A stretch of DNA of 27,522 bases from a virus (taxonomy: Duplodnaviria > Caudoviricetes). The DNA lies in the IMG/VR virus record IMGVR_UViG_3300012953_000172, positions 1-27,522 of that record; one strand, written 5' to 3'. The notes under the pieces are model-generated. The model ran no database searches, was not told the DNA's origin, and saw only the letters and a list, made by a program, of their open reading frames with translations. Below, piece by piece: positions 4,601-24,707 of this stretch; within the stretch, counting starts at the first letter, position 1, and the number at the start of each line of letters is the position of its first letter. The position numbers and the translations under genes are program-made.

Positions 4601-7600
4601 TTCTTCTTATAGTGTTAATCAAGGAGATGGTCCTAATAATATTTATGTTATGAGAAGAGACGGAAGTGGTATATCTTGGGAATGCTCAGGTTACCATAGC
4701 TACACAAGCATGGGTAGTTTAATAGGATTTGATGGAAGTATAGATGGAGAGCCTAGACTAACTACTCCTTTTACACATACACTTACTACCATAAAACCAT
4801 TACAAGAAAAACCTGCGGATTATACTGCTATAGCTTATGATGATGCTTTATCTTTTAATGATAGCCAGTGGTCTAAAGGTGCTAATAAACATCAAGTTTG
4901 TTTTGCAGGGACAGTAAGCGGTAGAATGGCTATAGATGGTTTTAGTCAAACATGGATGTTAAACGATAGTGAAGTTGACAATAGTCATTCAGTTCGTGAA
5001 AATCAATTTAAAACATATAATGATACTCCTGTATTATTTAAAATAACAGATACTGGTTCTGCAAAATCTGATACAAGAACATTTGCAGGTAGATATGCTA
5101 GTACTTCAAATTCTACTGCACACACAAACAATGAAATACCTTGGCATTATAATAATGGTGGTAAATTTAAAAAGAGATGTATTTATAGTACTAGTGATAG
5201 TACTCATATATCTACTAGAGGATCAGGTATAGTTACAGGAAGTGATCATAATCTTTACTATACTTCTGGTACTTATAGTTTATATGATGGCACTAAACTA
5301 GTTCCTACAATAGTTCCTTTTTCTAACGCTTCTGATGCAAATATGGTTCAAGGTCAAGTTGGGGATTATTTATATATTGATAGAAGATGGTTATCAGGAG
5401 AGCCAAGATTAGGAACTACTACTATGTATAAATCAGCTAGTGGATATATACAAACTGGAGAAAGTGAAGGATCAACAAGTTATGTATACAATAGAAATCA
5501 AAAACAATTTAGACCTTATACAGGTGCAGGTGGTAATGACAATCAAGCAACAACAATTAGAGGAACAGGTGGTTATTTAAGTAGACTTAGTTCTAGTGAA
5601 AAAGATTCTAAAGAATTACCAGCAGGTGATGGCGCTAATCATAATGGAGAAAAATTTAATCATCAAATTATTATTACATCTGTAAAAAGTGCGTATTCAT
5701 TAACAGATGATGTTAGCACTGCTAGAATGGGTGGTGGGGATGAATACTATTACAATCAAACTGATACTAGAGTTACAACTAATAGGTATAGTGCAAGTGA
5801 TCAACCAGCACAAATAACATATGATATAAATAGATATTCTCCAGGGTTTGAAACTATGTCTTATCATGCAGCAGAAATGAGACCATTTGAATTTCAAGGT
5901 GGTCCATTAGATTTAATTAGAAGTTTGCAACCTATAGCTAATACTAATATGACATATAAAAATCAATTATTATTATCATCAAGTAGCAATATAGGCGGTG
6001 AACTTACATCTACTTTATCTGCGTATGAAGATAAAACATACACAACAACAGGTAGCGTATATCACGTTTGGTATTCTGATAAAGTATCTGGATTATTAAA
6101 TAAAGTAGATCAAGATTTTTATACAGAGTATAGTACTCATACTAAAGTTTTACCAGTATCTTTAACACCTAATGAAGATGTAGCTGATGGAACAGCAGAC
6201 ACTCATACAGTATGGGGGTCTGGTAATGCTAAAGTATCTAATGTAAATAAACAATTTGTAGCACCTTTATTAGGAGAAGGTTATGATTATACAGCAGGAT
6301 CTTTTACAGCATTTGATAGTGACAATTATATAACAAGTAATCCATTGTTAACTTTTAGTAATGAACAAGGCACAGGAACAGAATTACCTAACAATGCAAA
6401 TATTAAATATAAAGTATCCTTTTTATATGATGGCTATCAAGAAAGTTCATTAAGTAATTTCTTTTATGATAAAACAATGACAGCAGATAAATCTAGTCAT
6501 GATGTTACAGTAAACTTAGATGAATCATATGATTTTAATCCTAGAGTTACACATATAGTAGTATACAGAAAGAACACGGATAACGATTTATATAGATTAG
6601 TAAAAGAAGTTCCTTTAGATAGTAAGATTTGGGTTAATGAAAATGGATTAAATAAATTTACATTTAGAGACGATAAAAGATTTGGATCTTATGCAGCATT
6701 AACTGGTATAAATGAAGAAAGAGAAACTACTAGTTTAAATTATTCTTTAAGTGCGCAAATTAATGATGAATTATTTGTAAGTCTTGCGTGGCATAAAGAC
6801 GCAGAAGATGATGTTAAAAAGTATGTATATAAATCTAAATCAGGAAACTTTAGCCAATTTGATTATAAAAAAGACTTTTTAGTATTACCTAATATACCTA
6901 CAGCATTAGCATCGTTTAACGGTAAAATATATGCATTTGATAGAAATAATACATATGTTATAAATCCACAGCAAATGTTTATAGAAGATACATTTGAAGG
7001 TGTAGGTTGTTTAAGCCAAGATGCTTTTGTAGTTACAGAGTTTGGAATGTGTTTTGCAGATGTAAACAATATTTATTTACACAATGGATCTATTGCTAAA
7101 CCAATAGGTACTAATATATTAGATGTATCTACATACGAAGGTATAAATTTAGGATGGCAAAAATCTGTAGATTATTCAGAAAATACTTTAGGTGTAAATC
7201 CTTTTGTGTTTTATGATGGTCAAACAAATTCTTTTGTGTGTTTTGTACATGCTTCATCAGATATAAATCCTGATAGCAGTGTATCAAAAGCATGGGTTTA
7301 TAGCATTTCTAGAAACAGGTGGGATTACTGGGAATCACCTAATGTTAAAAAAGCTATCCAAGGAATGGATGGAGATATAATAATATCAGATGGTAATCTT
7401 ATATATAATTATAAAAAAGATTCTACTAAACGTGATTGGAAATGGTTAAGTAAAAAATTATCATTAACTAAACAAACCAATACTAAAAGAATGAGTAGAA
7501 TTAAATTACAAGGTAGTCCTACTTTAGATACTATAAGCACACCTCCTAAATGGAATGATGACTTAGTAGTATATGTAGATGGTGAAATACAACAATTAAC

Positions 7601-8042
7601 TATACCAAACATTAACCCAGCAAAAAATAAAGGATTTACAAAAGAATTTAGTGGGTGTTTCTGGTATGACAATTCTGATTTAACAGATGCACAAACAACA
7701 ATAAATGTTAAGGGATTAAATGGAGAATCTATTACAGGTACATTACCACCAATAGGTACTTACATTATGTTAGAACAAGAAGTTATGCTTGTTACTGCAA
7801 ATCCTAGTTCAACATCATTGACTGTAACTAGAGGGCAACTAGGAACTACAGCAGTAGCTCACGATTATGATGCTTCTACACAAAGTACAGTAGGATTAGA
7901 AGGACAGAGAATATATAATATATGTCCTATTATTAAATTACCTTCTAAGTGTAAAGGTAAAAATATAGAAGTTAAATTTTCTAATCAGAAAGGTGTTGTA
8001 GATAGCTTTGCAATACAATTTATAGATAAAGGAGGCAAGTAA
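1647..8042 (+). CDS. large virion tail protein, tail nozzle / tail tubular B (T7 gp12, P22 gp10)-like, with large insertions
   Basis: 2131 aa, TTG start with GGGGAG upstream. N-terminal F..GV....SE.DIP..A.....NI and C-terminal GVGCLSQDAFVVTEFGMCFAD...IY...WVYS....RW segments resemble nozzle beta-propeller proteins. S/T/N/G-rich, and directly upstream of the ejection-protein genes. Confidence 0.65.
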   Translation: MAKSSFEISTFTSGVVGSPSETDIPNDAASYSTNINPVSEDGTLQAISNDQVLQSDVGFAVSAKTVQTLKILRSVENPNDDEGVDNVNVTAIAAHTDGYVKLTSSSHGLTTGDVIDFTNTSGGTDINGYLRVLNSVDTNNFTVEFIHADISSAPTGTPIGTFVLRKDVSNNKQVYEGALIQAVTYNSSYEEKKYVFYFVQQGSGVDPNLEGYTSVSVGVSNAADVNAIATALNTAINNTDGFTSTVSTDTITISPDANVDAPLFYIPDNSDTAVPQQDATFIEINTSAILPTITTEGKGTLFQSDDMAVVNMDDKVYTLFGINYTSNKIFKWDDIYNTNGENFTSEFADNITNDNKSTIQQRNKNLFIGLGGSEIFNTKWLGHIDSTQINKDIKGWFLVNDSLDSVDESASPNNYDHIIAQQIQDNNTAFNEQQCYHAAISGMNANDTAGAATLKDHMQDAGGKLYAAGNANINHSGKAANEPPKIGWCFKITDTNDTSDNKLLGAKQYKYDPSNALVIGDVFMVVDNTSGSEVLEYLGNTGTTEPAFMMGIVEGTSKIYKISTAPGTADFTAESDRVSSIDISEFIDGDTITTIAQCRSPLTSGASVANSNYLYYCDGTIDSGHVSDQRCRPLHMMYWVGTTNGNLYRVNLLDFHSQHNNDTYKGIKLDAKMVLDYSNIARCQDSQYDGNFKHWYGGIYGAKRFNEYGYSENSNIRTIDHNLEGTDTTITESSGAWVESYSWSKEPVNSNIAGIIETWNNATDTTQVPTAVQNNVAEKYVYDDDTDSAGAGANPGNMTHHHAQTNQTGDIKDYAADKTIKIQSHANNLNHGFDTGNLITGFINKDGKGHTNYQGNTVITKVEGLNEFKAQGTHPGTSGDEDSFPYYSCKVWVLWKRKDGSAHEKWDLMLYNFYPTTVQSNSVEVYDRTPPYDECEKNIMSDSHGVDNGIGAFWKDGDCNFYIQKSSMMLGKGNSEASNTILPQSSSYSVNQGDGPNNIYVMRRDGSGISWECSGYHSYTSMGSLIGFDGSIDGEPRLTTPFTHTLTTIKPLQEKPADYTAIAYDDALSFNDSQWSKGANKHQVCFAGTVSGRMAIDGFSQTWMLNDSEVDNSHSVRENQFKTYNDTPVLFKITDTGSAKSDTRTFAGRYASTSNSTAHTNNEIPWHYNNGGKFKKRCIYSTSDSTHISTRGSGIVTGSDHNLYYTSGTYSLYDGTKLVPTIVPFSNASDANMVQGQVGDYLYIDRRWLSGEPRLGTTTMYKSASGYIQTGESEGSTSYVYNRNQKQFRPYTGAGGNDNQATTIRGTGGYLSRLSSSEKDSKELPAGDGANHNGEKFNHQIIITSVKSAYSLTDDVSTARMGGGDEYYYNQTDTRVTTNRYSASDQPAQITYDINRYSPGFETMSYHAAEMRPFEFQGGPLDLIRSLQPIANTNMTYKNQLLLSSSSNIGGELTSTLSAYEDKTYTTTGSVYHVWYSDKVSGLLNKVDQDFYTEYSTHTKVLPVSLTPNEDVADGTADTHTVWGSGNAKVSNVNKQFVAPLLGEGYDYTAGSFTAFDSDNYITSNPLLTFSNEQGTGTELPNNANIKYKVSFLYDGYQESSLSNFFYDKTMTADKSSHDVTVNLDESYDFNPRVTHIVVYRKNTDNDLYRLVKEVPLDSKIWVNENGLNKFTFRDDKRFGSYAALTGINEERETTSLNYSLSAQINDELFVSLAWHKDAEDDVKKYVYKSKSGNFSQFDYKKDFLVLPNIPTALASFNGKIYAFDRNNTYVINPQQMFIEDTFEGVGCLSQDAFVVTEFGMCFADVNNIYLHNGSIAKPIGTNILDVSTYEGINLGWQKSVDYSENTLGVNPFVFYDGQTNSFVCFVHASSDINPDSSVSKAWVYSISRNRWDYWESPNVKKAIQGMDGDIIISDGNLIYNYKKDSTKRDWKWLSKKLSLTKQTNTKRMSRIKLQGSPTLDTISTPPKWNDDLVVYVDGEIQQLTIPNINPAKNKGFTKEFSGCFWYDNSDLTDAQTTINVKGLNGESITGTLPPIGTYIMLEQEVMLVTANPSSTSLTVTRGQLGTTAVAHDYDASTQSTVGLEGQRIYNICPIIKLPSKCKGKNIEVKFSNQKGVVDSFAIQFIDKGGK

Positions 8043-8305
8043 TGTCTAAGATAAAATCATTAAGACATGCTCCTAAAGTAACTGATCCAGAAGTTCAACT
8101 TGCAATAAATAAGATTTATGACGAAATTAACACATTAATAGATAGTGTAAATTCTAGCGTTACAGATATAGAAAAAGAAGGAAGTGGTAAACCTGGAGAC
8201 GTTAGAGTTACTACAAAATCTGATAGAGATGTAGTTTTAGAAGTAAGAACAGATGAAGGTTGGTTTGAATCTTCTGGTTTAACAATGATAAAGAAAAGAG
8301 GTTAA
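8042..8305 (+). CDS. hypothetical virion-associated protein
   Basis: 87 aa, TAATG-coupled to the tail gene, with GGAGG upstream. Confidence 0.75.
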   Translation: MSKIKSLRHAPKVTDPEVQLAINKIYDEINTLIDSVNSSVTDIEKEGSGKPGDVRVTTKSDRDVVLEVRTDEGWFESSGLTMIKKRG

Positions 8306-8878
8306 ATGGGGTTATTTAGTGCAGTTATAGATAGAAGTCCAATAGATCAATTTGGTGCTAGTGCAAATGCAGCAGCACAAGTTGGTATGTCGCAAGCAGC
8401 GTTTAATAGATCTAATGATATGTTTAATATGAACAGCACTAGAAATCAAATGCAAAGACAAATGACACAGCAATCTGCTTTTGATGTACAAGCACAAACA
8501 GATATGATGCAAAGAAGACAAGCTGCTAGAATGGGACAATCCTACAATCAAATAGATACTACATCTGCAATTAATCAACAAGTTCAAAATGCTAATATGC
8601 AACAAGGTCTTGCTAATCAACAAATGGCTGGTGGTTATTTAAGTCAAGCAGCATCAATGCAAGCAAGTGCAGCAAGCACAAGAAATAGTTTAAACGGTAT
8701 GTACAGACAACAACAACAAGCAAATCAACGAGCTAAACAACAAGCTAAAGCAGCAGCAATGAGTGCTGTAGGTGGCTTAGTATCTGGTCTAGCTGGTCCA
8801 GCAATAGGAGTATTAGGACAAGCAGGAGCTAATGCAATAGCAGGTGGATTTGGTATGAAGAAAGTAGGTATGGCATAA
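8306..8878 (+). CDS. putative ejection/pilot (internal virion) protein
   Basis: Q/A/M-rich helical sequence with a C-terminal Gly/Ala hydrophobic segment (AMSAVGGLVSGLAGPAIGVLG). Its position after the nozzle gene is typical of podovirus ejection proteins. Confidence 0.6.
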   Translation: MGLFSAVIDRSPIDQFGASANAAAQVGMSQAAFNRSNDMFNMNSTRNQMQRQMTQQSAFDVQAQTDMMQRRQAARMGQSYNQIDTTSAINQQVQNANMQQGLANQQMAGGYLSQAASMQASAASTRNSLNGMYRQQQQANQRAKQQAKAAAMSAVGGLVSGLAGPAIGVLGQAGANAIAGGFGMKKVGMA

Positions 8879-8879
8879 T

Positions 8880-9485
8880 ATGTTTTCAATAGCACAAGCA
8901 GCGCAAAATCAAATGTCAAGAATGCAAAATCAACAACAGTATGACAGAAGAATGGATTTAGAAGAAGCAAAATGGAACACATCTAAAGATATAATAGATT
9001 ATGATTTTGGAAGACGAAAAAGATACGATGAATCACAAGAAAATTTATTAGGATTAATTAATCAATATGATCAAGATAAAAATAATTATACAAAAGAATT
9101 AGAAAAATACAAACAAGATAATCGTGTAAAAGGACTATTTGAAATGTTTGGAGAAAAACAAACTATGGTTGATCCATCTGGTAAAACAAAACAAATTTAT
9201 AGAGATGGTAGAATGGTTGAAGTTCCTGCTATGGTTTCTACTCCTGAAACAAAAGGAGATTGGAAAAGATGGTTTAGAAGTTGGACAGGATCAAATCCAA
9301 AAGCAGAAGATGTAATTGGACCTGGCCCTGAAGGTCCTGATTTTAGAGACCCTAACTTGTATAAAGGAATCGGCATAGACCAATATAGATCATTAATAGA
9401 TTTTATTGAAAATGATGGAGATGCTTCAAGAAGAGCTACAATAGATGAATTATTAGAAGCACTAGATATAAAAGGAGTTAAATAA
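8880..9485 (+). CDS. hypothetical protein, putative internal virion protein
   Basis: 201 aa with a Q-rich coiled N-terminus, tightly packed in the ejection cluster. Confidence 0.6.
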   Translation: MFSIAQAAQNQMSRMQNQQQYDRRMDLEEAKWNTSKDIIDYDFGRRKRYDESQENLLGLINQYDQDKNNYTKELEKYKQDNRVKGLFEMFGEKQTMVDPSGKTKQIYRDGRMVEVPAMVSTPETKGDWKRWFRSWTGSNPKAEDVIGPGPEGPDFRDPNLYKGIGIDQYRSLIDFIENDGDASRRATIDELLEALDIKGVK

Positions 9486-10027
9486 TGGCTAATCCTAGAT
9501 TTAAAAAAACAAAAGCAGTAGCAGAACTTGTAAAAAGATATAATAAAGGAGATTTAGAATATCTTCCTGAAAAACAAAAAGAACAAATAGCTATGTTAGC
9601 TGCACAAATGGGACTAGATTTTAATGTTAAATCTAAACCAATCAGAAAAGGTTTATTTGATTTGGTTGATACAGCAGCGTTAGGACTTATTCCTAATTCA
9701 TTAAGACCATACTCAGTAGGAGAAGAATATCATGGAGAATCTCAATCTGATAAGTTTAGTGGTACTTTAGGAATGCTAGCTGGATCTGTTGTTCCAGGTG
9801 CTCTTGCTGTTAAAGGAATGGGCAAACTTAGGAATTGGTGGAACACTCCAAAAGGAAGTTCTGGACCTATTGGATATAGTCCTCCAGGAGCACAATCTCC
9901 TAATAGAATGGCTCAATTAAATCCTGCAAGAGATAATTTAATTGGTGGTAGACAACCTAATTTACTTGATATGACAGGGAATCAAAAACCTTATGGTTTT
10001 GACATTCCAAATAGGTTCTGGTCCTGA
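9485..10027 (+). CDS. putative internal virion protein with a domain similar to the N-terminus of the 2603-aa protein
   Basis: 180 aa, AGGAG RBS, TAATG coupling. Aligns by eye with the first ~100 aa of the next ORF. Confidence 0.65.
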   Translation: MANPRFKKTKAVAELVKRYNKGDLEYLPEKQKEQIAMLAAQMGLDFNVKSKPIRKGLFDLVDTAALGLIPNSLRPYSVGEEYHGESQSDKFSGTLGMLAGSVVPGALAVKGMGKLRNWWNTPKGSSGPIGYSPPGAQSPNRMAQLNPARDNLIGGRQPNLLDMTGNQKPYGFDIPNRFWS

Positions 10028-10066: not shown

Positions 10067-13000
10067 GTGTCTACATATAATGATAGAGTTTTTAATCTTG
10101 TAAGAACTTACAGATATAATCCTACTTTATTTTCTGAAGAGCAAGTAGATCAATTACAAGAATTAGCAAATCAAAACGATATTCCATTTAAAAGAAAAGT
10201 AGATAACTTTAATCTTCGTAAGACTGTTATGAACTTACAAACAGGATTCTTAGAAGGTTTTACTACTATTCCTGTAGGTAAATTAAGTGGACATGAACCT
10301 ACTACTACATACGAAGCAATAGCACATTCATTAGGGCATTTAGCAGGCTTTGCTCCTGGTATAATGGCAGCTCCTTTAAAAGCTGTTGGTGCTAAAACGT
10401 TAAGTAAACTTGCATCTGAAAAAAACAACTGGTCAATACCAATGATGTTTGGAGATGCTGCTAAATCAGGAATGGAATCTGGTTTAAAGAAAAAGCTATT
10501 TGGTAAAGCAAACTTAGAGTCTTTAGACTTTATGAAAAAGGGAGCATCTACTAGAGCTATTATAGACCAAGCAGTACATCTTGGTGCAGCAAGTGCTGTA
10601 TCATCTATTTGGAAAGGTCCTGATGAAATTATGAATGCAGGATTTCAAGGTGCTATAGCAGGTGGTGCATTTGGAGGATTAGGTGAATTTAAAATGATAG
10701 GTAACTATCTTAAATCTAAAGATCCTTTAAACTATAGAAAAGGTGAACAAAGATTAAAGGGTGTTATAGGTGCTAGTATGCTTGGTGTACCAACTGCATT
10801 ACAAGGTGAACCTATTGAAATGATTATGTATCAAACACTACTAGGTGGTTACTTTGGTTATGGATCTAGACCTTCATTTGAAAAAGAGGGTGGTCAATTT
10901 TTACAAAACTTAAGATATAATAATAATAGAGATTTTGTTTTTACTCCTGAAATGCATCCTGATATTTATTCTTATTCTTCTAAAGCTAGAGACTATATAT
11001 ATAAAGAATCTACTAGAGAAGCAAAAGAATACTACAATAGAAATAGAGAAAGAATTTCTGGTGATACAAAAGACGATATAAGAATTGAAATAGAAAATTT
11101 TGTAAGACAATCAAAGGGTTTAGGACCGAATGAAAAACCTTCTAAATCTGATATAGATGCTGAGTATAGAAACAAAGCTTATAATCTTTACAACACTTAC
11201 TATAAAGGAGAAGGTCATAAATACTATATACATTCAGATGTTAAAAATATTCTTAATACTTTTGATCATAAGATGGATAGCATGGATGATGTCAATATTA
11301 ATGTAAAAGTAGATAAAAATCCTAAGCCAGGTAGCTCTCAAGAAAGATTATTAAATACTAAGAATAGAGAAAAAGAAAAGAATATATTTGCTGTTGAAGA
11401 ATACTACGATCTTAATGGTAAAAAACAAAGTAGAGTTATGGGTCCATTCTCTCCAGAACAACTAGGTGTTAAAGGAGATGTGCATGGTAAAAGAGTAGGT
11501 GAAAGTAGAGCAGATAGACCAGCAGATAAATTAGAAAACACTGAGTATATATTATGGGATACTGTTTTTATTAATGAAGCTAGCTTTGGTCAAAAACCAA
11601 GATTTGAAAAGTACAAACCTTTAGACTTTACATTTGAAAAAAAGGGTGACAATGCTGAAAAAATATTTTCATGGAAAAAAGTATTTGAAACAGATATGAG
11701 ATTAGATGAAAAAGGTTTTTATATATTTGGTGGAGTAAAAGATAAGTCTACATTTACATTAAGACCTTATCATACTGACTATAGAAAATATAATAAAGAA
11801 GAATTGTTTACTGCTTTAGCTAAAGAAAACAATGCTACTCCTAAAGATATTGCAGATAGATTTGAAACAAGCAGAAGAGAGTTTCTTAAAATATACAATC
11901 ATCATAAAGATATAGAATTATTAAATCGTATGCATGAAGACGCATGGAAGTCAAATGTATTAGCAGAAGCTGATAGAAATGGTATTTATAATAATGAATT
12001 AACTAATCTATATTTACTAGAAAGACCTGGATTTTCTAAAAATGTAATTGAGTGGAATAAAAGAGAGCAGATATATCACGATAAATCTATGCCTTTAAAA
12101 GATGGAACTTTAAAAGAAGGTAACTTTGCTATTTTTAAAGATGTAGTTAATGAGTATTACAAGAATGAAAAAGGAGAAGATGTTCCTTTTGATAGTGATA
12201 CAGATGGTACTATATATTTTAAACCAAAAGATTTAAGTAAGATGATGGATAGTCTTGGCTTACCTAAAAATGTAGATATGAATAAACCTGTTTTAATTGT
12301 TAAAACTCCTAGAGGTACTATGATTGTTAAAGCAGCAGGTAAAGCTGCTCCTAAAGACTTAGTAAACTATATGGAGAAGAATAATATTAAAGCTCTTATT
12401 ATGGAATCAGCTGCTAAACATAGAGGATTAAATGAAGTTAATACATTTGATAGAGCAGCATTAGAAAAAGGAGAGTGGAATCATACTGGTGAATTATTTA
12501 CTGGTGAGTTTAAAGATTCCGATATTAGAATTAATCTAGGAACATTTGTAGATCCTAAAAAGTTTGGTGGTAATAATAAATCAAGAATTGTAAGACAGCT
12601 ATTAAGCAATCTTAATAATAAAGATGCAGGTGGAGTTATGTCTATTGTTTGGGATAGAGTATTTGAACCTAGTATTAATGGTAATGAAAAGTTAAATACA
12701 GCTATTAAAACACACTTAAAAAATAAGACTGACATAAAAGAAATAGAGTCTTTTTTAAAAAAGAATAAACTTACAGTTGATGAAGTTGGTTTAGATGTTA
12801 TACATGATATTTTTGTAAACCATGGTAATAGTAAATTAGCACAGAAGTTTGCAAGAGAAATAGCACGTCAAGATAAAAAAGGTGAGCTAGAAGATGTAGA
12901 TACATTTACAGCAGAAGAATATAAACAATATGTTTATAGAAACAATAGAATACTAGACGCATCTGATTTTTCTCAATCACAAAGAGAAGCAGGTCGTAAC

Positions 13001-16000
13001 TCTCGACAGTTTTGGGAAAGTGTATATAAAAAATACTTTTTAAATAGACTGTATAGTCCTAAGTATAATTATTCTGCTAAAGCATGGCTATCTCCTAAAG
13101 ATCCTGTGTCTTTACTTAATGCATCTAAAAATATAAAAGAAGGATATTTTAAATTAGATGACGGTCATAGAAATATGAAAGTAAAATACAAAGGTGATGA
13201 CATGACTCTTGAGGAAGCTTGGAGAAAATCTGGTAGGAATAGTGAAGATCCAGATCTTGAAATGCTTGTTATTCGTGTTCCTTCTGATAGTATGTCTGGA
13301 ACACGTTCTCTTAAGTTTGGTGGTTTTACTCGTGATAAAGGATATTCAATTACTACTAATGCAAAGGATAATGCGTACCTAGGAGGTGCAGATAAAGATA
13401 GTGACTCTGCATTTATATACCAAGGTATGCCACGAGAGCTTCATAAAGCTACTAAAAAGGCTGCAAAACAATGGGAGAGGGGTGACGTATTACTTGACTC
13501 TAAAAGAGCTAAAAACGACAAGTTATTTGGTGCAGAAGAATCTGCTGCTGAAATGTATAAAACTACTACAAGTAAGTTTTCTCCATCTTTAAGAAGAAAA
13601 GTTGCAGAAACAGCTGCAAAAGGTAATCAAGGATTAGGTTTAGGTGTTATTGCTAAAAGTAATTTAACTGCAATAGCTGATTACATAGAAGCTAATGGTG
13701 GAAGATTAACAAACGTACCTGTATATAATAAAAATGGTAAGCAATACGCTACTATAGAATACATAGAATTAAAACCTGGTGGTTACGATAGATTAATTGA
13801 ATTAGGCAGAGAGATTGTAAATAGATCTGCTGACTCATCTAACTATCCTACTATGGTTGACTACACAAAGTTCCCAGATATTTTAGTTAAAGAAGCATTT
13901 AATGGTAAAGTTAGAGTACAGAAGAAAGATGGTGGATCTTTTTTAACTGAATTAAAGTTTTTAAATATAAGAGGCAGTAAGCTAGGTGATATAACAAAAG
14001 TAATTAGAGATATTGATCCTGGAAAAGGTAGTAATAAAGTTACTTGGACACAATTACAAAATACTATAAAGAATTCTGATGTAAAAGGATTTGATAATTT
14101 TGGTAGTTTTGTTGCTAGAAAAATGAAAGATATGAAAATTACAGACTCTATTTTTGAGCAAAACTTATTTACAAATCACACTAAGTTAGTTGATAACATA
14201 GGCAAGTATTTAGAAACAAGACAAGATATTCCTGATTCTATTATAAAGCAAATAAATCAGTTAGCTTCATTTAAATCTAACACTGGTAACATACTTAAAC
14301 AGTTAGAAAAAGGTAGAAACTATGAAGATGTAAGATACATGCTTGAAAGAGATTTAGAAGCAGTAGCTGGCTATGTAGCTGTAACTCAAAAAGGTTACGA
14401 TGTTTATAGCGAAATAAATAAACTGCCTTTAAGTAAAGCACAAAAAGCTAAAATAGTTGATAGAGTTTTAAAGCCTATAGCAGAAGAAGCATCTAGAATT
14501 AAAAGAGCATCTTATAATAATAATCCTAATAGATTTGATAGAAAAGAATTAACACATTCTAGCAGTGAATTATTTGATAGAGAAGTAGTTAATTACAAAA
14601 ACGGTAGACTTCAGTTGCATCAAGCTAAAATAAATAATTGGCTTAAAGCTAATGGTCATGAAGTTCGTTTATCAAAAACATTATTAAATGAATATTTTGA
14701 TTTATGGTTATTGAGTCCTTACTATACTCAATCTGTTAATACACAATACTCTAAATTCCCTTGGCAATCTAAAAGTATTAGTCAAGAATCTATCGAGTAT
14801 TATACTAAGACACAAGATCGTATTTATAATAAAATGAATGATTTTAAAGAAGGTGATTCAATTTCTAAAGGTATATTTGAATTTAAATCAGAAGCTCCTA
14901 CTCCTAAACAACTTGTAGAACAAAAAGTAGTTGAGAAATTTGTACCTATAGATCAAGCTGAATATTTAAGAACAAGAGCTATTACTGAACCTGAATTAAA
15001 ACTAGTAGAAGAGTTTATTAACAGAGTAAATAGCAATGAAATTATAAGAGATAATTTGGAAGATTTTTATATTAATTGGCAGATACAAAACAAAGGTGGT
15101 ATTGATTCTAAAGATTTGTCTTTGATAGATATAAAAGATATAAATGCAATTAATAATTATTTAAAAGATATGGATGTTAGGTTTACTTCTAAAGGAACTA
15201 AGCTTCCTGACTTTGCATTTAGAGCATCTCCAGAATATATGGATCTATACATGCAGAACTTTGAAAACAAATTCTTTTCAGAAATGGAAATGCCTATTAG
15301 AAGTAAAGAAGGCACAGTAAAACGTAAAGTTAAAAGGTTTACAAGTACTATGGGAGATTTAAAAGACTTTATGCATAAAAGCAACAGTCAAATGGAATCT
15401 ATTTTACAACAAGTTATTCCTAATAATACTAAGAGATACCCTCATTTAAATCTTGGTGAAAAGAATGCTGAATCTATTAATAAAATAGTTATTAAACTTA
15501 GAGAAAGTAGAGATTCTACAACAGGAATTAAACCAGATGATTATAAGTTAACATCAGATTATAAGCGTTTATCTAAAGAAAAGTTTAATATTAAAGGTAA
15601 AGAAAAAACACTAGACGAAGTTATTGAAATGACTGACAAATTAATGACAGAAGATTTTAAACAATTCGGTCAAAAGTATATTTATGGTAGTGCTAAAGAT
15701 AGAGCTAAGTATATTAAGTTTAATGCAGATGGTAGTTTAAATATTAAGAATATTGAAAAAACTATTATAGAGCCTATGGTAAATCGTCAGAATATGAGAA
15801 TACCTTTAGATATATTAAGAGAAATTAATTACAGAATGAGAAATCCTAAAGATGTGCAGCTTAAAAAATTTAGTAGAATCGGAGAGCGTGATGTTGAATC
15901 TTACTTCCCTCATTTAAATTTTGGAAGAAATAAAAAATCACAAAAAGAAATTGCTGCTTTTAAAGAACAACATCTTAAGGATTTTTATGATTCTAAAATC

Positions 16001-17878
16001 AGAGAAGGTAAAACTAAAAAACAAGCGGAAGATCTTACTAAAATAGAAGGATTTGGTATTGATACTAGAGTATTTCAAAGCCAACAGGATGATAAAGGTT
16101 TATCTTCTTTAAATATATTTAGTTCTGCTAAAAAGCGTTCTGCTAAAAATATGCCTGGCTGGGACAATACTCACAATGCTATTCATTTATACAAAGAGGG
16201 TTTTATTAGAGGAATGTATAGAAATATGTTTAAGATACAGTCTGATATAAGAATACAACAATTTGAAAAAGAATTAGCTTTTGGTAATAGAACAAAAGAC
16301 TGGTCTTTATATTTAAGAGAGTATGCAAATAACTCTTTAGGTTTTGCTAGTACTTTTGAAAAAGATGTTTTGGAAAACTTTGTTAAGGCAGATCCTAAGT
16401 TTAAACGCAGAGGATATTACCTTACAAGTGATCAAAAGATTATAGATATATATGATTCTGTAGAAAAAAGATTTAAAAAGATTGGACGTGAAGTACCTTT
16501 TAGTAAAAATATAGTACCTAGACCAAATCCTAAATTAAAGAAAACTAACCCTGATTTATATAAAGCACAGAAAGAAGCTCATATACAATCGCTTACTAGA
16601 ACTATACATAAATGGGGTAGAATGGAAGCTAAATACAATCTTCTTACTTTATTAGGACATAGTAAGATTATGGCAGGTAACTTATTCGGTGGTACACAAA
16701 TGACTATTAGTAGAGGTGGAATGAAAAATTTTAGAAGAGCTAATGATAAAAAATGGTTAACAAAAAACATCATTAAAGATGTTAATGGTGACTATCAATT
16801 AAAATTATCAGATGGTAGTTTTGTTAAAAATACAAAAGACTTAAAGAAATATTTATCTGAAAAAGGTGTAATAGAATCTTTTATAGCTACTGAATTAGAT
16901 GTTAATGCAGATTTTGCTAATTTAAAAGGTGCTCCTTTAAAAAATATGAAAGACTTTGTAAATGAAGTAAATAAAAAACTAAGACAAGATCCAGATTTAT
17001 CAGATAAAACTATATACGAGATTGCTAAAAAATATAAAGTAGAAAAAAAAGTAGAAGGCGCAGCTGCATGGTTTATGCAAAGATCAGAACGTAAACTTAG
17101 ACAAGATTCTTTTTTAACACATGCTATTGAATATAAAGAACACTGGGGTAAATATGGATTAGAGCTTTCTTTGAATGATCCAGCTGTTGTAGAAGCAGGT
17201 TTTAGAGGAGTGGAAGCAACTCAATTTATTTATCATAGTTCAGCTAGACCATCTTTTATGAGAACTGCTTTGGGAAAAGTGTTCTCTCGTTTTAAATTAT
17301 TTGTGTTTAATTCAGTAAGAGTTCGTAAAGAGATGCTAAGAAAAGCTAAATATTACGACTTTGAACCAGGTACTAAAGAATTTGAAAAGTTTAAAACAGA
17401 TTTTGCAATCAACATGTTTGTTATGGCACTTGGTACTGCTTTTGCATATAGCTTATTTGACACAACATTACCACCTCCTTACGATTGGATGCAGGAAACT
17501 GGAGAGTGGTTATTTGGTAACAAAAAAGAAAGAGACCAAGCATTCTTTGGGCAATGGCCTTACCCTGTAGCACCATTGAATATTGCAACTCCTCCTGTGG
17601 CAAGGATTCCTATGGCTGCATTTTCTAGTCTTATTAATAAAGACTGGGAAAGATTTGCAGATTATCACTTGTACACAATGTTTCCTTTTGGTCGTTTAAT
17701 CAGATCTGTAGATAAAACGATTGACGAACCCTACGGAACGATTGAAGGGAGAGCACTGCAACAGTTTTTAGGTTTACCTTTGGATAAAGTAAGAAATAGA
17801 ATTGATCGAGCTAAAGTATTAGAAGCTCGTCAAAATAAAATAAATAGTGAACTAAATGAAATGGAGAACATAATATGA
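10067..17878 (+). CDS. giant virion protein, candidate single-subunit two-barrel (DPBB) DNA-dependent RNA polymerase
   Basis: 2603 aa, GTG start after AAGGAG. Ordered motifs D713-G (SDTDG), K755 (IVKAAG), K784 (ESAAK), R1070-x-P (VIRVP) and D1109-x-D-x-D1113 (YLGGADKDSD). Located in the ejection-protein cluster. Confidence 0.8.
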   Translation: MSTYNDRVFNLVRTYRYNPTLFSEEQVDQLQELANQNDIPFKRKVDNFNLRKTVMNLQTGFLEGFTTIPVGKLSGHEPTTTYEAIAHSLGHLAGFAPGIMAAPLKAVGAKTLSKLASEKNNWSIPMMFGDAAKSGMESGLKKKLFGKANLESLDFMKKGASTRAIIDQAVHLGAASAVSSIWKGPDEIMNAGFQGAIAGGAFGGLGEFKMIGNYLKSKDPLNYRKGEQRLKGVIGASMLGVPTALQGEPIEMIMYQTLLGGYFGYGSRPSFEKEGGQFLQNLRYNNNRDFVFTPEMHPDIYSYSSKARDYIYKESTREAKEYYNRNRERISGDTKDDIRIEIENFVRQSKGLGPNEKPSKSDIDAEYRNKAYNLYNTYYKGEGHKYYIHSDVKNILNTFDHKMDSMDDVNINVKVDKNPKPGSSQERLLNTKNREKEKNIFAVEEYYDLNGKKQSRVMGPFSPEQLGVKGDVHGKRVGESRADRPADKLENTEYILWDTVFINEASFGQKPRFEKYKPLDFTFEKKGDNAEKIFSWKKVFETDMRLDEKGFYIFGGVKDKSTFTLRPYHTDYRKYNKEELFTALAKENNATPKDIADRFETSRREFLKIYNHHKDIELLNRMHEDAWKSNVLAEADRNGIYNNELTNLYLLERPGFSKNVIEWNKREQIYHDKSMPLKDGTLKEGNFAIFKDVVNEYYKNEKGEDVPFDSDTDGTIYFKPKDLSKMMDSLGLPKNVDMNKPVLIVKTPRGTMIVKAAGKAAPKDLVNYMEKNNIKALIMESAAKHRGLNEVNTFDRAALEKGEWNHTGELFTGEFKDSDIRINLGTFVDPKKFGGNNKSRIVRQLLSNLNNKDAGGVMSIVWDRVFEPSINGNEKLNTAIKTHLKNKTDIKEIESFLKKNKLTVDEVGLDVIHDIFVNHGNSKLAQKFAREIARQDKKGELEDVDTFTAEEYKQYVYRNNRILDASDFSQSQREAGRNSRQFWESVYKKYFLNRLYSPKYNYSAKAWLSPKDPVSLLNASKNIKEGYFKLDDGHRNMKVKYKGDDMTLEEAWRKSGRNSEDPDLEMLVIRVPSDSMSGTRSLKFGGFTRDKGYSITTNAKDNAYLGGADKDSDSAFIYQGMPRELHKATKKAAKQWERGDVLLDSKRAKNDKLFGAEESAAEMYKTTTSKFSPSLRRKVAETAAKGNQGLGLGVIAKSNLTAIADYIEANGGRLTNVPVYNKNGKQYATIEYIELKPGGYDRLIELGREIVNRSADSSNYPTMVDYTKFPDILVKEAFNGKVRVQKKDGGSFLTELKFLNIRGSKLGDITKVIRDIDPGKGSNKVTWTQLQNTIKNSDVKGFDNFGSFVARKMKDMKITDSIFEQNLFTNHTKLVDNIGKYLETRQDIPDSIIKQINQLASFKSNTGNILKQLEKGRNYEDVRYMLERDLEAVAGYVAVTQKGYDVYSEINKLPLSKAQKAKIVDRVLKPIAEEASRIKRASYNNNPNRFDRKELTHSSSELFDREVVNYKNGRLQLHQAKINNWLKANGHEVRLSKTLLNEYFDLWLLSPYYTQSVNTQYSKFPWQSKSISQESIEYYTKTQDRIYNKMNDFKEGDSISKGIFEFKSEAPTPKQLVEQKVVEKFVPIDQAEYLRTRAITEPELKLVEEFINRVNSNEIIRDNLEDFYINWQIQNKGGIDSKDLSLIDIKDINAINNYLKDMDVRFTSKGTKLPDFAFRASPEYMDLYMQNFENKFFSEMEMPIRSKEGTVKRKVKRFTSTMGDLKDFMHKSNSQMESILQQVIPNNTKRYPHLNLGEKNAESINKIVIKLRESRDSTTGIKPDDYKLTSDYKRLSKEKFNIKGKEKTLDEVIEMTDKLMTEDFKQFGQKYIYGSAKDRAKYIKFNADGSLNIKNIEKTIIEPMVNRQNMRIPLDILREINYRMRNPKDVQLKKFSRIGERDVESYFPHLNFGRNKKSQKEIAAFKEQHLKDFYDSKIREGKTKKQAEDLTKIEGFGIDTRVFQSQQDDKGLSSLNIFSSAKKRSAKNMPGWDNTHNAIHLYKEGFIRGMYRNMFKIQSDIRIQQFEKELAFGNRTKDWSLYLREYANNSLGFASTFEKDVLENFVKADPKFKRRGYYLTSDQKIIDIYDSVEKRFKKIGREVPFSKNIVPRPNPKLKKTNPDLYKAQKEAHIQSLTRTIHKWGRMEAKYNLLTLLGHSKIMAGNLFGGTQMTISRGGMKNFRRANDKKWLTKNIIKDVNGDYQLKLSDGSFVKNTKDLKKYLSEKGVIESFIATELDVNADFANLKGAPLKNMKDFVNEVNKKLRQDPDLSDKTIYEIAKKYKVEKKVEGAAAWFMQRSERKLRQDSFLTHAIEYKEHWGKYGLELSLNDPAVVEAGFRGVEATQFIYHSSARPSFMRTALGKVFSRFKLFVFNSVRVRKEMLRKAKYYDFEPGTKEFEKFKTDFAINMFVMALGTAFAYSLFDTTLPPPYDWMQETGEWLFGNKKERDQAFFGQWPYPVAPLNIATPPVARIPMAAFSSLINKDWERFADYHLYTMFPFGRLIRSVDKTIDEPYGTIEGRALQQFLGLPLDKVRNRIDRAKVLEARQNKINSELNEMENII

Positions 17879-19484: not shown

Positions 19485-19661
19485 ATGAGAGATACTTTAA
19501 GATTACTAAGTAATTACCCAGAGTTAGGTGGCAGTGTAAGTTTTTTTTCAACGATTATAGGATGGACAAACATATTCAATCCTATTCTAACCTTTATATC
19601 ATTAAGTATAGGTATTGTAATTGGTCTTATGACTTTATATGCTAAATGGTCTAAAAAGTAG
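19485..19661 (+). CDS. 58-aa holin-like membrane protein (not in ORF track)
   Basis: MRDTLRLLSNYPELGGSVSFFSTIIGWTNIFNPILTFISLSIGIVIGLMTLYAKWSKK. GAGGA upstream, two hydrophobic segments and a basic C-terminus. Confidence 0.6.
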   Translation: MRDTLRLLSNYPELGGSVSFFSTIIGWTNIFNPILTFISLSIGIVIGLMTLYAKWSKK

Positions 19662-20223
19662 GATAATCTAAATTAAAAGATATAACAATTCTTTCTTCTT
19701 CTGTAGTATTAGGAGGCACTTTATGTGCAAGCCAACCAGGAAATAATATTAACATACCTTCATATACTTCCTTACCGTAATTATTATAATGTAAGTTTTC
19801 AAAATTTCTAGTAGGCTGTGGATCTTCAAACACTAAAAAGTTTTTTTGTTGTTTAGGCAGCTTAATATAATAAGCACCAGATAACCAAGAACGTGCGTGT
19901 GTATGTATAGAGTTATAATTATCTTTTTTGTTTATAATAAACCACATTTCAGAAATCTTTTTGCAGCTCATATCTTTAGTTAAACTAAAATCATTAATTA
20001 TATATTTATTTGCTGCTTCTAATATTGCTTTATTTAATACATTAAAAGATTCTATGTTTCTATTATGTAAATCTGATTCACTATGATAACCGCCTTTATT
20101 AGATCTATCTATGCTAGTCTCTTTATTTTTAATATCTTCTATATCCTTTAAAAACATTTTATCTACAGGTAAATTGTAATAGTAGAGAGTAGTAGGGAAT
20201 ATAGGTTCTCTGTATATTTGCAT
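19651..20223 (-). CDS. 2OG-Fe(II) oxygenase, TIGR02466-like
   Basis: IFPT start, RSNKGGYHS, W..IN....YN..HTH..SWLSGAYY, FEDP, LFPGWLAHKV.PN....RIVISFN. Confidence 0.88.
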   Translation of the reverse strand: MQIYREPIFPTTLYYYNLPVDKMFLKDIEDIKNKETSIDRSNKGGYHSESDLHNRNIESFNVLNKAILEAANKYIINDFSLTKDMSCKKISEMWFIINKKDNYNSIHTHARSWLSGAYYIKLPKQQKNFLVFEDPQPTRNFENLHYNNYGKEVYEGMLILFPGWLAHKVPPNTTEEERIVISFNLDYPTF

Positions 20224-20385
20224 TTATTTTTTAGGATTTAGTGAGTACTTATAGAATGACATTACATAGAGATAGATCCACCAGCATCTTTTATTGTCAG
20301 ACGCTATTAATGCGGCTTTCTTGAATCTTGCTCTTCTAGATAAGCCACGGTATTCTTCTGCGTAATACTCCTGACCTTTAGTCAA
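20224..20385 (-). CDS. hypothetical protein (53 aa; not in ORF track)
   Basis: TTG start 5 nt after GGAGA. MTKGQEYYAEEYRGLSRRARFKKAALIASDNKRCWWIYLYVMSFYKYSLNPKK fills the gap exactly. Confidence 0.6.
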   Translation of the reverse strand: MTKGQEYYAEEYRGLSRRARFKKAALIASDNKRCWWIYLYVMSFYKYSLNPKK

Positions 20386-20647
20386 TTATTTCTCCGTTGA
20401 ATTCTGTAATAATTACTTCAAGTAAAGGATGAAGTCTTTCATTATTACTTATCCAAAACTTACAACCTTTATTTATTATATTGTTAGGAATTTTTGGTGG
20501 AGATTGTTTTTTGTAATACATCCACCAGTAACACGTGTTGTTTTTATTATACGTGCAATTTAGACAGTTTCTTATTGAGTCTTCTTTGATATTTTTCAGC
20601 TTTCTCTTTAGTAAAAAATTTTCTACCATCAGATGATATATATACAA
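20378..20647 (-). CDS. hypothetical Cys-rich protein (start uncertain)
   Basis: CLNC..C...C motif typical of small phage metal-binding proteins. The 5' part overlaps another plausible ORF. Confidence 0.5.
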   Translation of the reverse strand: MYIYHLMVENFLLKRKLKNIKEDSIRNCLNCTYNKNNTCYWWMYYKKQSPPKIPNNIINKGCKFWISNNERLHPLLEVIITEFNGEIID

Positions 20648-20675
20648 AGTCTATTTCGTGTTTAATTTCTTTCAT
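20547..20675 (-). CDS. hypothetical protein (42 aa; not in ORF track)
   Basis: MKEIKHEIDFVYISSDGRKFFTKEKAEKYQRRLNKKLSKLHV. The Y...DG..F...A..Y pattern is common in small phage proteins. No clear SD. Confidence 0.5.
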   Translation of the reverse strand: MKEIKHEIDFVYISSDGRKFFTKEKAEKYQRRLNKKLSKLHV

Positions 20676-20683
20676 ATTTAAGT

Positions 20684-20750
20684 TTAAGGAGCCTCACTTA
20701 CGAGCATTAGATGATTGAGAGGTATGGAGGTTATAAACAAGACTCCTTAA
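20684..20750 (-). ncRNA. long hairpin RNA element with an anti-SD-like loop
   Basis: On the - strand, UUAAGGAGUCUUGUUUAU pairs with GUAAGUGAGGCUCCUUAA (18 bp, 5 G-U). The loop contains ACCUCC and ACCUCUC. Confidence 0.45.
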
Positions 20751-21034
20751 CTTTTTCCTATTATGTTATTATTTAGTATTGACTTAGAATCAAACTCTAA
20801 AGATTCTATTATTTCACCATTTGCATGTGTTACATCTATGGTTATTGTATCTTCAATGTTTTTAACATTAACTTTAAATGTACCATTATCAACTTCTAGT
20901 TTATTTTTTTGTAAAGATTCTATGCCTTTTCGGAGAGATTTTACATATTTAATACCAAGTATAGTCTCACCCATTAATCTGTCTAAAAGTACATACAATT
21001 TTTTTAAATAATCTATTGATAATTCTCTATCCAT
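20747..21034 (-). CDS. hypothetical protein
   Basis: 95-aa ORF overlapping the upstream stop codon, co-oriented with its neighbours. Confidence 0.7.
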   Translation of the reverse strand: MDRELSIDYLKKLYVLLDRLMGETILGIKYVKSLRKGIESLQKNKLEVDNGTFKVNVKNIEDTITIDVTHANGEIIESLEFDSKSILNNNIIGKS

Positions 21035-21359
21035 TTAACAACTTTAACCATTCTTCTAGATCCATAACAACTTTTGGTGTTTCTCTGTTTCTTTTAATAA
21101 CTAATACTGGAGTTGATTTACCAGAGTTAGTTTCACATTGCTTGAATGATTTCCAAACATTAAGTTTTTCTACATTCTTGCATTCAAAAGAAAAAGGTAG
21201 TTTCTTTCTAGCATGAGGGGTAAGGACAATGTCCTCACCCGTCATACCCATTATTTGAGATCCTATGTCATCCTTTAAATCAGGATATAATTTTACTAGT
21301 TTATCTCTTAATATATTCTGCAATCTCTTGCCTTTGTTCTTCGCTGATCTTGCTTTCAT
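21027..21359 (-). CDS. PD-(D/E)xK nuclease, Holliday junction resolvase-like
   Basis: SAKNKG.RLQ, GEDIV, FSFECKNVE, P.LV.KRNR. The ATG at 21359 forms an ATGA overlap with the upstream gene. Confidence 0.8.
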   Translation of the reverse strand: MKARSAKNKGKRLQNILRDKLVKLYPDLKDDIGSQIMGMTGEDIVLTPHARKKLPFSFECKNVEKLNVWKSFKQCETNSGKSTPVLVIKRNRETPKVVMDLEEWLKLLNG

Positions 21360-21544
21360 GGTAACAACTTTCTCCAAATTGATAAACCCATTGATACTTC
21401 AAAGGGACCTGCACTAATTCCTAAAGTCATATGGTCTCCCTTTACTATATTATAAGACATAGTAATAGAGAATAACCATAAAAATATTAAAGAAATACCG
21501 CATTGATTATCGTAAGATGTTCCAAGAGTTTTATATTTAATCAT
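21356..21544 (-). CDS. hypothetical protein
   Basis: 62 aa with AGGAG upstream, translationally coupled on both sides. Confidence 0.65.
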   Translation of the reverse strand: MIKYKTLGTSYDNQCGISLIFLWLFSITMSYNIVKGDHMTLGISAGPFEVSMGLSIWRKLLP

Positions 21545-23316: not shown

Positions 23317-23555
23317 GTTTTTGTCTTATTTTGATTAGATATTTCTTTCAAATCAATGACACCTATTTCATTATATTCTTTATTCTCTCTTATCTTACGC
23401 CATGTTCTAGAATAAGCCGAAGGTAATCTACTAGTATTATGAAATAATTTACCATATTCTGGTAAGCGTGTTTCAATATGTACTGAAGATATTACTGGAA
23501 CTCCTTGATTTATTCTATAATTAAGATATTTAAGAATTATTCCTTTAGTTGTCAT
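23298..23555 (-). CDS. hypothetical protein (possible winged-helix-like DNA binder)
   Basis: 85-aa basic ORF, TAATG-coupled. The function guess is weak. Confidence 0.65.
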   Translation of the reverse strand: MTTKGIILKYLNYRINQGVPVISSVHIETRLPEYGKLFHNTSRLPSAYSRTWRKIRENKEYNEIGVIDLKEISNQNKTKTWQIIT

Positions 23556-24145
23556 TAAGTTGGTATTCCGTTGAATTGATCATCACTTGACCAAGGGCTA
23601 TCACTTTCTGATGACTCTTCTGAAGATTTGAAATCCTTAACATAGTTTTTACCTACTGAATCTTTAAACTCTGCTTTGAATTTACTTACTTCATAGTTAG
23701 GCATTCTAGTTTCTTGCCAATCTTTCCATAATTGTCCACCATCACGTTTAGTTTTAGTAGAAATGTATGTTAATCTTAGAAACTCTTTACCTATCAGTCT
23801 TTGTTCTGCATCAGCTGGTAATTTGCTAGATTGTGGACTTTTACCTTTATCTAACATTATTGGTAATCCTATAGAGTCAAAGAACATTTTAACTTTAAAT
23901 GCTGTTGACCATCCTACAATCTCACCACTTACATCGTCTTTCTTATAATTACCACCTATATACATATTAGGTTGGAAATCTCTTCCGATGTCTAATGTTA
24001 GATGTACAGAAATATCATCTGAATATGTTTGCCAATCTTCTTTGACACCATATTTAATTTCTGCTGTTGCTATTTTTACTTTGTCGACAAATAAATTGTC
24101 TTTACTTTTTGATCCTGAACTGCTACCGCTAGTTACCCAATCCAT
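23555..24145 (-). CDS. putative single-stranded DNA-binding protein
   Basis: GGAGG RBS, located between ERF and the primase-helicase, acidic Ser-rich tail ending DDQFNGIPT. Function is inferred from context. Confidence 0.5.
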   Translation of the reverse strand: MDWVTSGSSSGSKSKDNLFVDKVKIATAEIKYGVKEDWQTYSDDISVHLTLDIGRDFQPNMYIGGNYKKDDVSGEIVGWSTAFKVKMFFDSIGLPIMLDKGKSPQSSKLPADAEQRLIGKEFLRLTYISTKTKRDGGQLWKDWQETRMPNYEVSKFKAEFKDSVGKNYVKDFKSSEESSESDSPWSSDDQFNGIPT

Positions 24146-24154
24146 GCTTACCTC

Positions 24155-24619: not shown

Positions 24620-24640
24620 TTTACCTCCGATTTGAATTAT

Positions 24641-24700: not shown

Positions 24701-24707
24701 CTTTATA

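Follow-up and report, generated by a model that had tools for sequence, protein, structure and literature searches.

A giant gene with the residue order of a two-barrel RNA polymerase

The DNA analysed here (the window) is the stretch of 27,522 nucleotides held in the IMG/VR virus record IMGVR_UViG_3300012953_000172, which comes from an uncultured marine phage assigned to Caudoviricetes. On its plus strand lies a gene for a protein of 2603 residues, which, judging from residue conservation and predicted structure, is almost certainly a two-barrel RNA polymerase (RNAP), the class of enzyme whose core carries two double-psi beta-barrels (DPBB). The frame is uninterrupted, starts with GTG and is preceded by AAGGAG, and the full-length homologues of the protein have about 2600-3300 residues. 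The features of the gene are given below; residue numbers of QDE-1, a eukaryotic enzyme of the RNA-dependent RNA polymerase (RdRP) family, are used for comparison, and the fractions refer to the two homologue sets described in the next section.

10067..17878, plus strand: 2603-residue protein with a Gly/Ala-rich N-terminus, a predicted two-barrel RNA polymerase core and a long helical C-terminal part (open reading frame listing)
10067..11326, plus strand: conserved Gly/Ala-rich N-terminal region of no known family (62 sequences aligned; 17 columns invariant, of which 8 are Gly)
11654..14056, plus strand: predicted two-barrel polymerase core, residues 530-1330 (AlphaFold2, Foldseek and VIA)
12059..12070, plus strand: K665-R666-x-Q668, likely counterpart of QDE-1 R671/Q673 in the product-binding helix before barrel 1 (order and spacing)
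Residues 710-714, plus strand: SDTDG, with D713 at nucleotide 12203 (sequence)
12203..12208, plus strand: D713-G714, likely the equivalent of the second-metal D709 of QDE-1; D in 104/106 and 130/133
12329..12331, plus strand: K755 in IVKAAG, likely counterpart of QDE-1 K743 (conservation and spacing)
12416..12418, plus strand: K784 in ESAAK, likely counterpart of QDE-1 K767 (conservation and spacing)
13274..13282, plus strand: R1070-V-P1072 in VIRVP, the RxP loop, putative counterpart of QDE-1 R962/P964; 106/106 and 130/133
13385..13405, plus strand: G1107-A-D1109-K-D1111-S-D1113, putative catalytic loop; Gly and three Asp in 106/106 and 130/133
13583..13693, plus strand: predicted helix of 37 residues, 1173-1209, likely bridge helix (H644-680 of the model; within the range aligned to RNAP largest subunits)
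13781..13834, plus strand: predicted helix 1239-1255 ending at D1256, likely trigger-loop helix (QDE-1 D1116; model and conservation)
16016..17875, plus strand: C-terminal region, conserved and all-helical, with a single hydrophobic segment at 2445-2463 (alignment and model)

The original prediction, made from the letters of the window, had read five motifs of such an enzyme in this gene (SDTDG, IVKAAG, ESAAK, VIRVP and YLGGADKDSD, the last with D1109/D1111/D1113 at nucleotides 13391-13405), and all five were found at those places in a single frame. The motifs alone are modest evidence, since the whole chain of seven residues recurred in 1.3% of 10,000 shuffles of the 2603-residue protein; RxP-x28-48-DxDxD recurred in 2.9% of them. 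The case for a polymerase rests on conservation and on the predicted fold.

Conservation of the catalytic residues

Two sets of homologues were collected. Residues 600-1300 as query yielded 106 sequences, the most distant at about 23% identity. When 1.84 billion representatives were searched with a profile, a family of 451 clusters at 50% identity emerged (cut-off E 0.001), and conservation was read in the best 150 of the 451 clusters, of which 133 were new with respect to the first set (the distant representatives).

R1070, P1072, D1109, D1111 and D1113 are invariant in all 106 homologues, and they account for five of the only eight alignment columns at 106/106, the remainder being glycines. 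D713, K755 and K784 are present in 104, the other two sequences being fragments without this region. P1072 and each of the seven residues other than K755 occur in 130 of the 133 distant representatives, and K755 occurs in 129; each region is absent from three fragments. The seven residues proposed as catalytic thus proved to be kept in both sets (104-106 of 106 and 129-130 of 133). D1256 is similarly conserved, in 103/106 homologues and in all 100 distant representatives that cover it, and upstream of barrel 1 K665 is present in 103, R666 in 96 and Q668 in 79 of the 106. A second DxDxD-like stretch, 709-713, is poorly kept, with D709 in 34/106 and Asp at position 711 in 61/106.

The original prediction had treated DKDSD as a special, atypical active site, a view that the family does not bear out, as positions 2 and 4 of the pentapeptide vary freely across it. 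Among the distant representatives, position 2 is L in 68, K in 29, V in 9 and N in 8, with others in the rest, and position 4 is G in 68, I in 40, A in 15 and S in 7 (alignment A2, whose loci were picked by the pattern GGADKD[SA]D, was left out of the motif statistics). A FastTree phylogeny was built with 152 of 162 rows, ten being dropped for short cover or a missing motif; its root is a midpoint root and claims no order of events. Its rows hold 22 different pentapeptides, including DLDGD and the crAss-like DLDID. The 23 DKDSD rows all sit together with the query in a 28-row clade (local support 0.93), and DKDSD is thus, on the sequences compared, a clade marker and nothing special. These 22 natural pentapeptides are a series for testing the role of the 'universal' Gly of DxDGD.

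As regards that position, the gp66 virion RNAP (DFDID) of phi14:2, a crAss-like phage, is informative: according to its description, Ile at motif position 4 accompanies in the crystal a loop unable to bind Mg2+, and the enzyme is nevertheless active (bioRxiv 10.1101/2020.03.07.982082). Speculatively, Ser in place of Gly could keep the loop distorted until ejection, as has been proposed for gp66. The distorted gp66 loop could also be taken to mean that the window protein is a catalytically dead polymerase relic, retained as a structural ejection protein, and the trigger-loop Lys of QDE-1 is indeed mostly missing in the family. Such a relic is hardly probable, given that the metal- and nucleotide-binding residues stay invariant down to about 23% identity while their neighbours vary, and that gp66 is active with its DFDID.

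The family is hidden from ordinary annotation. None of the source names shown for the homologues says polymerase. No polymerase match was obtained for the 2603-residue protein in Pfam, in PHROGs or in the PDB, the last searched by sequence and by profile, and residues 501-1400 found nothing at E 1 by tblastn among 50,697 GenBank phage records. The Pfam RdRP family (PF05183) matched neither the window protein nor 13 long homologues; PF05183 RdRP is also the nearest named Atlas cluster, at 0.81, which is a lead only. It had been suggested that Lys and Ser in the motif conceal the enzyme, an explanation that fails because homologues with the canonical DLDGD lack a polymerase Pfam match as well, and gp66 and YonO themselves have no Pfam match. 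On these searches, sequence divergence and not the DKDSD motif is what hides it. No publication on the family was found in the literature searched, which did not cover the alignments of the 23 RNAP families compared in the paper on phage P23-45 (PMC10770324), so that inclusion there is possible; none of the family's motifs occurs in the readable supplements of that paper.

Predicted structure and correspondence to QDE-1

Residues 530-1330 were modelled with AlphaFold2 from a 72-sequence alignment, and the model reached a predicted local distance difference test (pLDDT) of 89 and a predicted template modelling score (pTM) of 0.86. The predicted structure has two double-psi beta-barrels and a connector in a single chain. 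Against the PDB, Foldseek placed phi14:2 gp66 (6VR4) first (E 1.3e-9), then QDE-1 (E 1e-7) and RDR2, and all matches listed were two-barrel RNA polymerases or complexes of one; PolD was not among the fold-search matches listed, which is not an exclusion of PolD. In VIA, QDE-1 gave Z 17.4 with 491 residues aligned at an rmsd (root-mean-square deviation) of 4.6 (model 2-786 on QDE-1 543-1150) and RDR2 gave Z 17.3, followed by gp64 (Z 15.3) of phage P23-45; gp66 reached Z 12.0 with the longest alignment (662 residues, rmsd 4.7), and gp96 of P23-45 Z 10.3. With the largest subunits of cellular RNAPs the alignment was confined to the second half of the model, 460-787. The two programs disagree, gp66 being nearer in Foldseek and QDE-1 in VIA. 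Together with residue invariance, these matches uphold the two-barrel fold that had been proposed from the motifs. Among the predicted viral structures of BFVD, the seven best matches were unnamed and crAss phage proteins appeared from rank 8 (E 3e-11). Four unnamed viral proteins that match the core there (A0A516LW39, A0A516LAI4, A0A516LUR1 and A0A516LSI3; E 1.6e-29 to 1.3e-15, 11-20% identity) were labelled distant members or sister families.

The order of the conserved residues is the same as in QDE-1 and RDR2 (PF05183), including R-x-Q ahead of barrel 1, the trigger-loop Asp and the Gly that stands two places before the first Asp. Order and spacing suggest that R671/Q673, D709, K743 and K767 of QDE-1 correspond to R666/Q668, D713, K755 and K784 here, and R962-x-P964, G1005, D1007/1009/1011 and D1116 to R1070-V-P1072, G1107, D1109/1111/1113 and D1256. 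R666/Q668, G1107 and D1256 are correspondences beyond those of the original prediction. The model makes helices 1173-1209 and 1239-1255 the likely bridge and trigger helices. The differences from QDE-1 are a K784-R1070 interval some 90 residues longer than its K767-R962 interval, a mostly missing counterpart of K1119, and the embedding of the polymerase in a phage structural-operon protein with no Pfam RdRP match.

By this order and spacing, D1109/D1111/D1113 together with D713 would hold two Mg2+, R666, K755 and K784 would bind product and NTP phosphates, and D1256 would bind the NTP 3'-OH. R1070 would select the ribose 2'-OH, which the Arg of the QDE-1 RxP loop binds according to PMC9508822.

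The polymerase is very probably DNA-templated. An enzyme acting mainly on RNA templates and making, for instance, antisense or double-stranded RNA could be supposed from the highest Z scores, which fall to QDE-1 and RDR2, and from the nearest Atlas cluster named above. The carrier, on the other hand, is a tailed phage with double-stranded DNA (terminase, portal and capsid). Furthermore, the gp66 preprint describes gp66, equally QDE-1-like, as DNA-dependent and QDE-1 as transcribing single-stranded DNA more robustly than RNA (bioRxiv 10.1101/2020.03.07.982082). Action mainly on RNA templates is accordingly very unlikely.

In fold, the core is about equally close to QDE-1/RDR2 and to gp66, a point of relevance to the proposal that the eukaryotic RNA interference polymerases came from phages. 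Moreover, with its 800 residues and good model, the core lends itself to expression and structure determination.

Gene order around the polymerase

The remaining genes of the window considered here are the following:

454..1654, plus strand: endolysin and metallophosphoesterase, conserved upstream (phrog_465, E 5e-36; phrog_221, E 8e-28)
1647..8042, plus strand: 2131-residue protein, likely in the tail-nozzle slot (leads only)
8042..10027, plus strand: four small genes (87, 190, 201 and 180 residues), candidate ejection proteins, between the nozzle slot and the polymerase
19651..27520, minus strand: convergent early/replication block, presumed template (spore photoproduct lyase-like protein, DUF932, ERF, primase-helicase, resolvase, 2OG-Fe oxygenase)

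Related loci were fetched as a redundant set of 158, and strands were counted over 156 of them. The phosphoesterase is present in 54/156 loci, always on the polymerase strand (54/54), and the primase-helicase in 75/156, always on the opposite one (75/75); in loci with at least 5 kilobases (kb) downstream, the opposite-strand primase-helicase is found in 56/59. The recurrent order is lysin, phosphoesterase, large gene, small genes, polymerase and then the convergent block, and in all the genome maps read the polymerase closes the structural strand as its final large gene. In phi14:2 the order is parallel: lysin, phosphoesterase, ring, muzzle, small structural proteins, RNAP.

The polymerase gene had been described as following tail nozzle and ejection genes. 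The nozzle label is based on leads only, and the ejection labels are without database support. For the nozzle slot, the family profile matched a phage nozzle weakly (E 0.47, a lead only), and a protein in the same slot of locus L057 (14% identical in the alignment) has as Atlas neighbours PF11134 (0.93) and crAss_MUZ (0.91), again a lead only. Against the phi14:2 muzzle the profile was blank, the target being a single sequence, which shows distance and not unrelatedness. The protein of the nozzle slot varies in length among relatives, from about 790 to 2170 residues, with conserved N- and C-terminal blocks around a large variable middle that is possibly a receptor-binding insertion. The four small genes gave no family match above the cut-off in Pfam or PHROGs. 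BLAST relatives of the 180-residue gene occur in 104/158 loci and of the 87-residue gene in 51, and the 190-residue protein consists of 16% Gln and 18% Ala.

In the convergent block, the primase-helicase of the window is fused (phrog_16345 and phrog_19). No DnaG Pfam match was found in the window, and whole genomes were not scanned for it. The spore photoproduct lyase-like gene (26849-27520, minus strand; PF20903, E 5e-17) is 96% identical in the relative G002. In one locus (L051) the polymerase gene lies in pieces of 2453, 182 and 543 residues, where a close relative (L029) has one frame of 3222 residues; the break is either an assembly error or an insertion.

Genomes and particles of the relatives

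The window itself has no head genes, and the evidence about capsid and portal comes from relatives. One of them, G005 (locus L164), has 47,090 bases with direct terminal repeats, and eight other records have 41.8-50.5 kb at 86-100% estimated completeness. Relatives encode a terminase, a P22-like portal (E 3e-59; also 4/4 in another check), an SU10-like capsid and adaptor, and tail fibres, which, by these matches, points to podovirus-type particles. Close relatives in culture are lacking for terminase, capsid and portal, the best listed matches being about 23-37% identical. In L163 (654-1312) the SU10-like adaptor is seemingly split: of two small genes, one matches the N-terminal and the other the C-terminal part of PF24175.

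The family resembles the crAss virion RNAP, and it differs from the gp66 family and from Crassvirales in sequence-detectable orthology, capsid, genome size and motif position 4. Like gp66, the window protein is a giant single chain, predicted to be a two-barrel enzyme, with a residue other than Gly at that position. Similarity in sequence to gp66 is not detectable, and the family profile reached a probability of 0.2 against it, the single-sequence target giving low sensitivity. One giant gene stands here in place of three large neighbours, with the catalytic motif at about residue 1110 of 2603. The crAss trait of Ile/Val at motif position 4 is replaced by Ser here, Ile occurring in 40/133 distant members. 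The relatives have genomes of 42-50 kb and a P22-like portal with an SU10-like capsid, whereas phi14:2 has 100 kb and Crass_capsid. Capsids from 3/3 relatives matched SU10_MCP and 0/3 matched Crass_capsid, which the phi14:2 control matched at E 8e-200; the phi14:2 capsid, ring and muzzle match crAss-specific Pfam models and the relatives' proteins do not. No crAss record was among the matches listed in tblastn searches with capsid and portal.

Neither PolA nor PolB was found in 5/5 relatives' records (G001-G005, one of them with terminal repeats), in which a fused primase-helicase is present; these blanks are not proof of absence, because a PF03237 search of five relatives was also blank although PHROGs and PF17289 identify their terminase. 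The missing DNA polymerase raises the alternative that the two-barrel enzyme replaces it and makes DNA or primers, and two-barrel DNA polymerases do exist, as described for PolD (PMC7281927). The RxP Arg, which reads the 2'-OH in QDE-1, is nevertheless invariant here, the best structural matches are RNA polymerases, and the phage has its own primase-helicase, with the polymerase gene outside the replication block. The chance that the enzyme makes DNA or primers is consequently very slight.

Concerning the host, 24 pattern matches in 185,579 species genomes included one relative, in a Prochlorococcus single-cell assembly (L159). This relative has 46 kb and 54% core identity and is the only, unverified, host hint. 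No host was assigned from it because single-cell assemblies can hold infecting or co-sorted genomes (PMC6122165).

Terminal regions and accessory domains

About 1800 residues lie beyond the core, and they are conserved at both ends. The N-terminal region, without a significant family or PDB match, possibly has a packaging or ejection role. The C-terminal region weakly matches phrog_11358 (a 3431-position profile of unknown function) in 25/43 members. Its model has a pLDDT of 64 and no Foldseek match at E 0.001, and the best VIA score, Z 7.0, falls on one helical hairpin.

Moreover, 5/13 long homologues carry a NADAR, cpYpsA/SLOG, superfamily-1 helicase or AlkB-like domain above the Pfam cut-off. 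Such domains have been linked to injected or packaged multidomain proteins in two papers (PMC5512222, PMC9503650), and their presence in the long homologues is consistent with a packaged, injected protein. Inserted cpYpsA/SLOG, NADAR, DUF7831, superfamily-1 helicase or AlkB-like domains were seen in P0128, P0159, P0221, P0223, P0030, P0183 and P0192, and two homologues reach 5249 and 5818 residues.

Probable delivery in the virion

The conserved synteny, the parallel order in phi14:2 and the accessory domains are consistent with packaging in the virion and early transcription of the opposite strand. By analogy, the polymerase would be delivered by the virion and act early, which we consider quite probable. 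The complete reading is of a packaged single-chain DPBB RNA polymerase that is ejected and transcribes the opposite-strand block, and it is likely on balance; for packaging, ejection and the early template it draws on gene position and on the analogy with gp66 and N4. As in phi14:2, the gene would be expressed late, from its place at the structural operon's end, and its product packed in the head of a small podovirus-type phage and ejected into the host with the small upstream proteins. Before phage proteins exist, the two-barrel core would then transcribe the block on the opposite strand with its recombination, primase-helicase and resolvase genes, the N- and C-terminal regions probably serving packaging and envelope passage.

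Known injected polymerases offer partial parallels. The catalytic domain of the N4 virion RNAP is of the single-subunit (T7-type) class and not two-barrel. The likeness is in the strategy: in N4 and Schitoviridae, a giant polymerase is ejected with two smaller proteins to start transcription (PMC13434306, PMC11445570). In the Thermus phage P23-45, the virion protein gp96 likewise has a two-barrel core fused into a larger virion-type protein, there the tape measure belonging to a very long tail; its partner is a second, non-virion RNAP, gp64 (PMC10770324). In the relatives considered here the portal is P22-like and each record contains a single family member, and the 2603-residue protein has no tape-measure match. 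What would be new, and by analogy is likely, is that a strategy proven in crAss-like and Thermus phages operates in much smaller phages outside both. Beyond Crassvirales and a Thermus phage, injected two-barrel RNAPs would then also occur in small marine phages, as an extensive lineage that lacks annotation (the 451 clusters), and many ocean podoviruses may begin infection without the host polymerase.

A true two-barrel RNA polymerase could instead remain unpackaged and be made in the cell for late or middle genes. This is how YonO of SPbeta, a single-chain two-barrel phage RNAP, is made and acts, transcribing late or middle genes. The same fold evidence applies to such an enzyme, the non-virion gp64 outscores the virion gp96 in the VIA comparison given above, and no known ejection domain was found. 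YonO, however, has 839 residues and lies upstream of terminase and portal, whereas the gene described here stands at the far end of the structural strand and encodes the additional 1800 conserved residues. Against YonO the family profile gave in hhalign a probability of 1.6 over 34 columns, the target being again a single sequence, so that distance and not unrelatedness is indicated. Each of the nine relatives' records holds one member of the polymerase family and no second one (9/9), although an unrelated second RNAP could escape. An unpackaged enzyme is hence improbable.

Several observations weigh against the complete reading. The catalytic loop is modelled at a pLDDT of about 80, compared with 92-95 on both flanks, and the trigger-loop K1119 of QDE-1 is mostly lost, position 1259 being N in 54, D in 28 and K in 15 of 106. 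The QDE-1 equivalences come from order and spacing and not from superposition. Neither terminal region matches a known ejection protein, the T7 core proteins appearing only at E 1.2 or worse, and the identity of the nozzle is a lead only. Furthermore, there are weak matches to non-podovirus parts: a major tail protein (E 4e-4, over 88 residues of the 2131-residue protein of the window), a tail sheath in G001 (E 0.004) and a tape measure (E 9e-7, over 81 residues of a 569-residue protein of G004).

Candidate early-strand signals

An element consisting of a hairpin and a T run is repeated on the early strand. The copy of the window, found in the element scan, is:

24672..24704, minus strand: hairpin and T run, 58 nucleotides before the ERF start

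In the window and nine records, the early strand has 30 such elements and the late strand 2. G002 has 5, G004 8, G006 8 and the window 1, and none are present in G007-G009; they were also seen at L169, L174 and L180. Sixteen of the 30 stand 26-68 nucleotides before a start codon, as recognised by the pattern of the script. Base composition behind the T run is skewed, with T at the second place in 23/30 and G at the third in 16/30. These elements could act as terminators, as host promoters that overlap terminators, or as signals for the polymerase. A sigma-70 scan of 17500-27522 gave 44 sites, fewer than in shuffles (62.4). Three RNA-library runs and an unlabelled one have contigs on this stretch, with flat or patchy cover; DNA carry-over was possible, and these data were not taken as a sign of expression.

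A broader proposal joins these observations, and we regard it as rather doubtful. The family would be a third, very large lineage of injected two-barrel RNAPs, nearer to QDE-1/RDR than crAss gp66 is, that serves minimal 47-kb marine podoviruses without a DNA polymerase of their own. It would start at private cassettes of hairpin and T run before early genes and toggle between a self-inhibited and an active loop through the free exchange of Gly, Ala, Ser and Ile.

In G005 (L164:19164-19364), the stretch separating the early block from the terminase genes has four imperfect direct repeats, with spacings of 35, 35 and 77 nucleotides, beside a bidirectional hairpin. This region is a candidate origin or packaging region.

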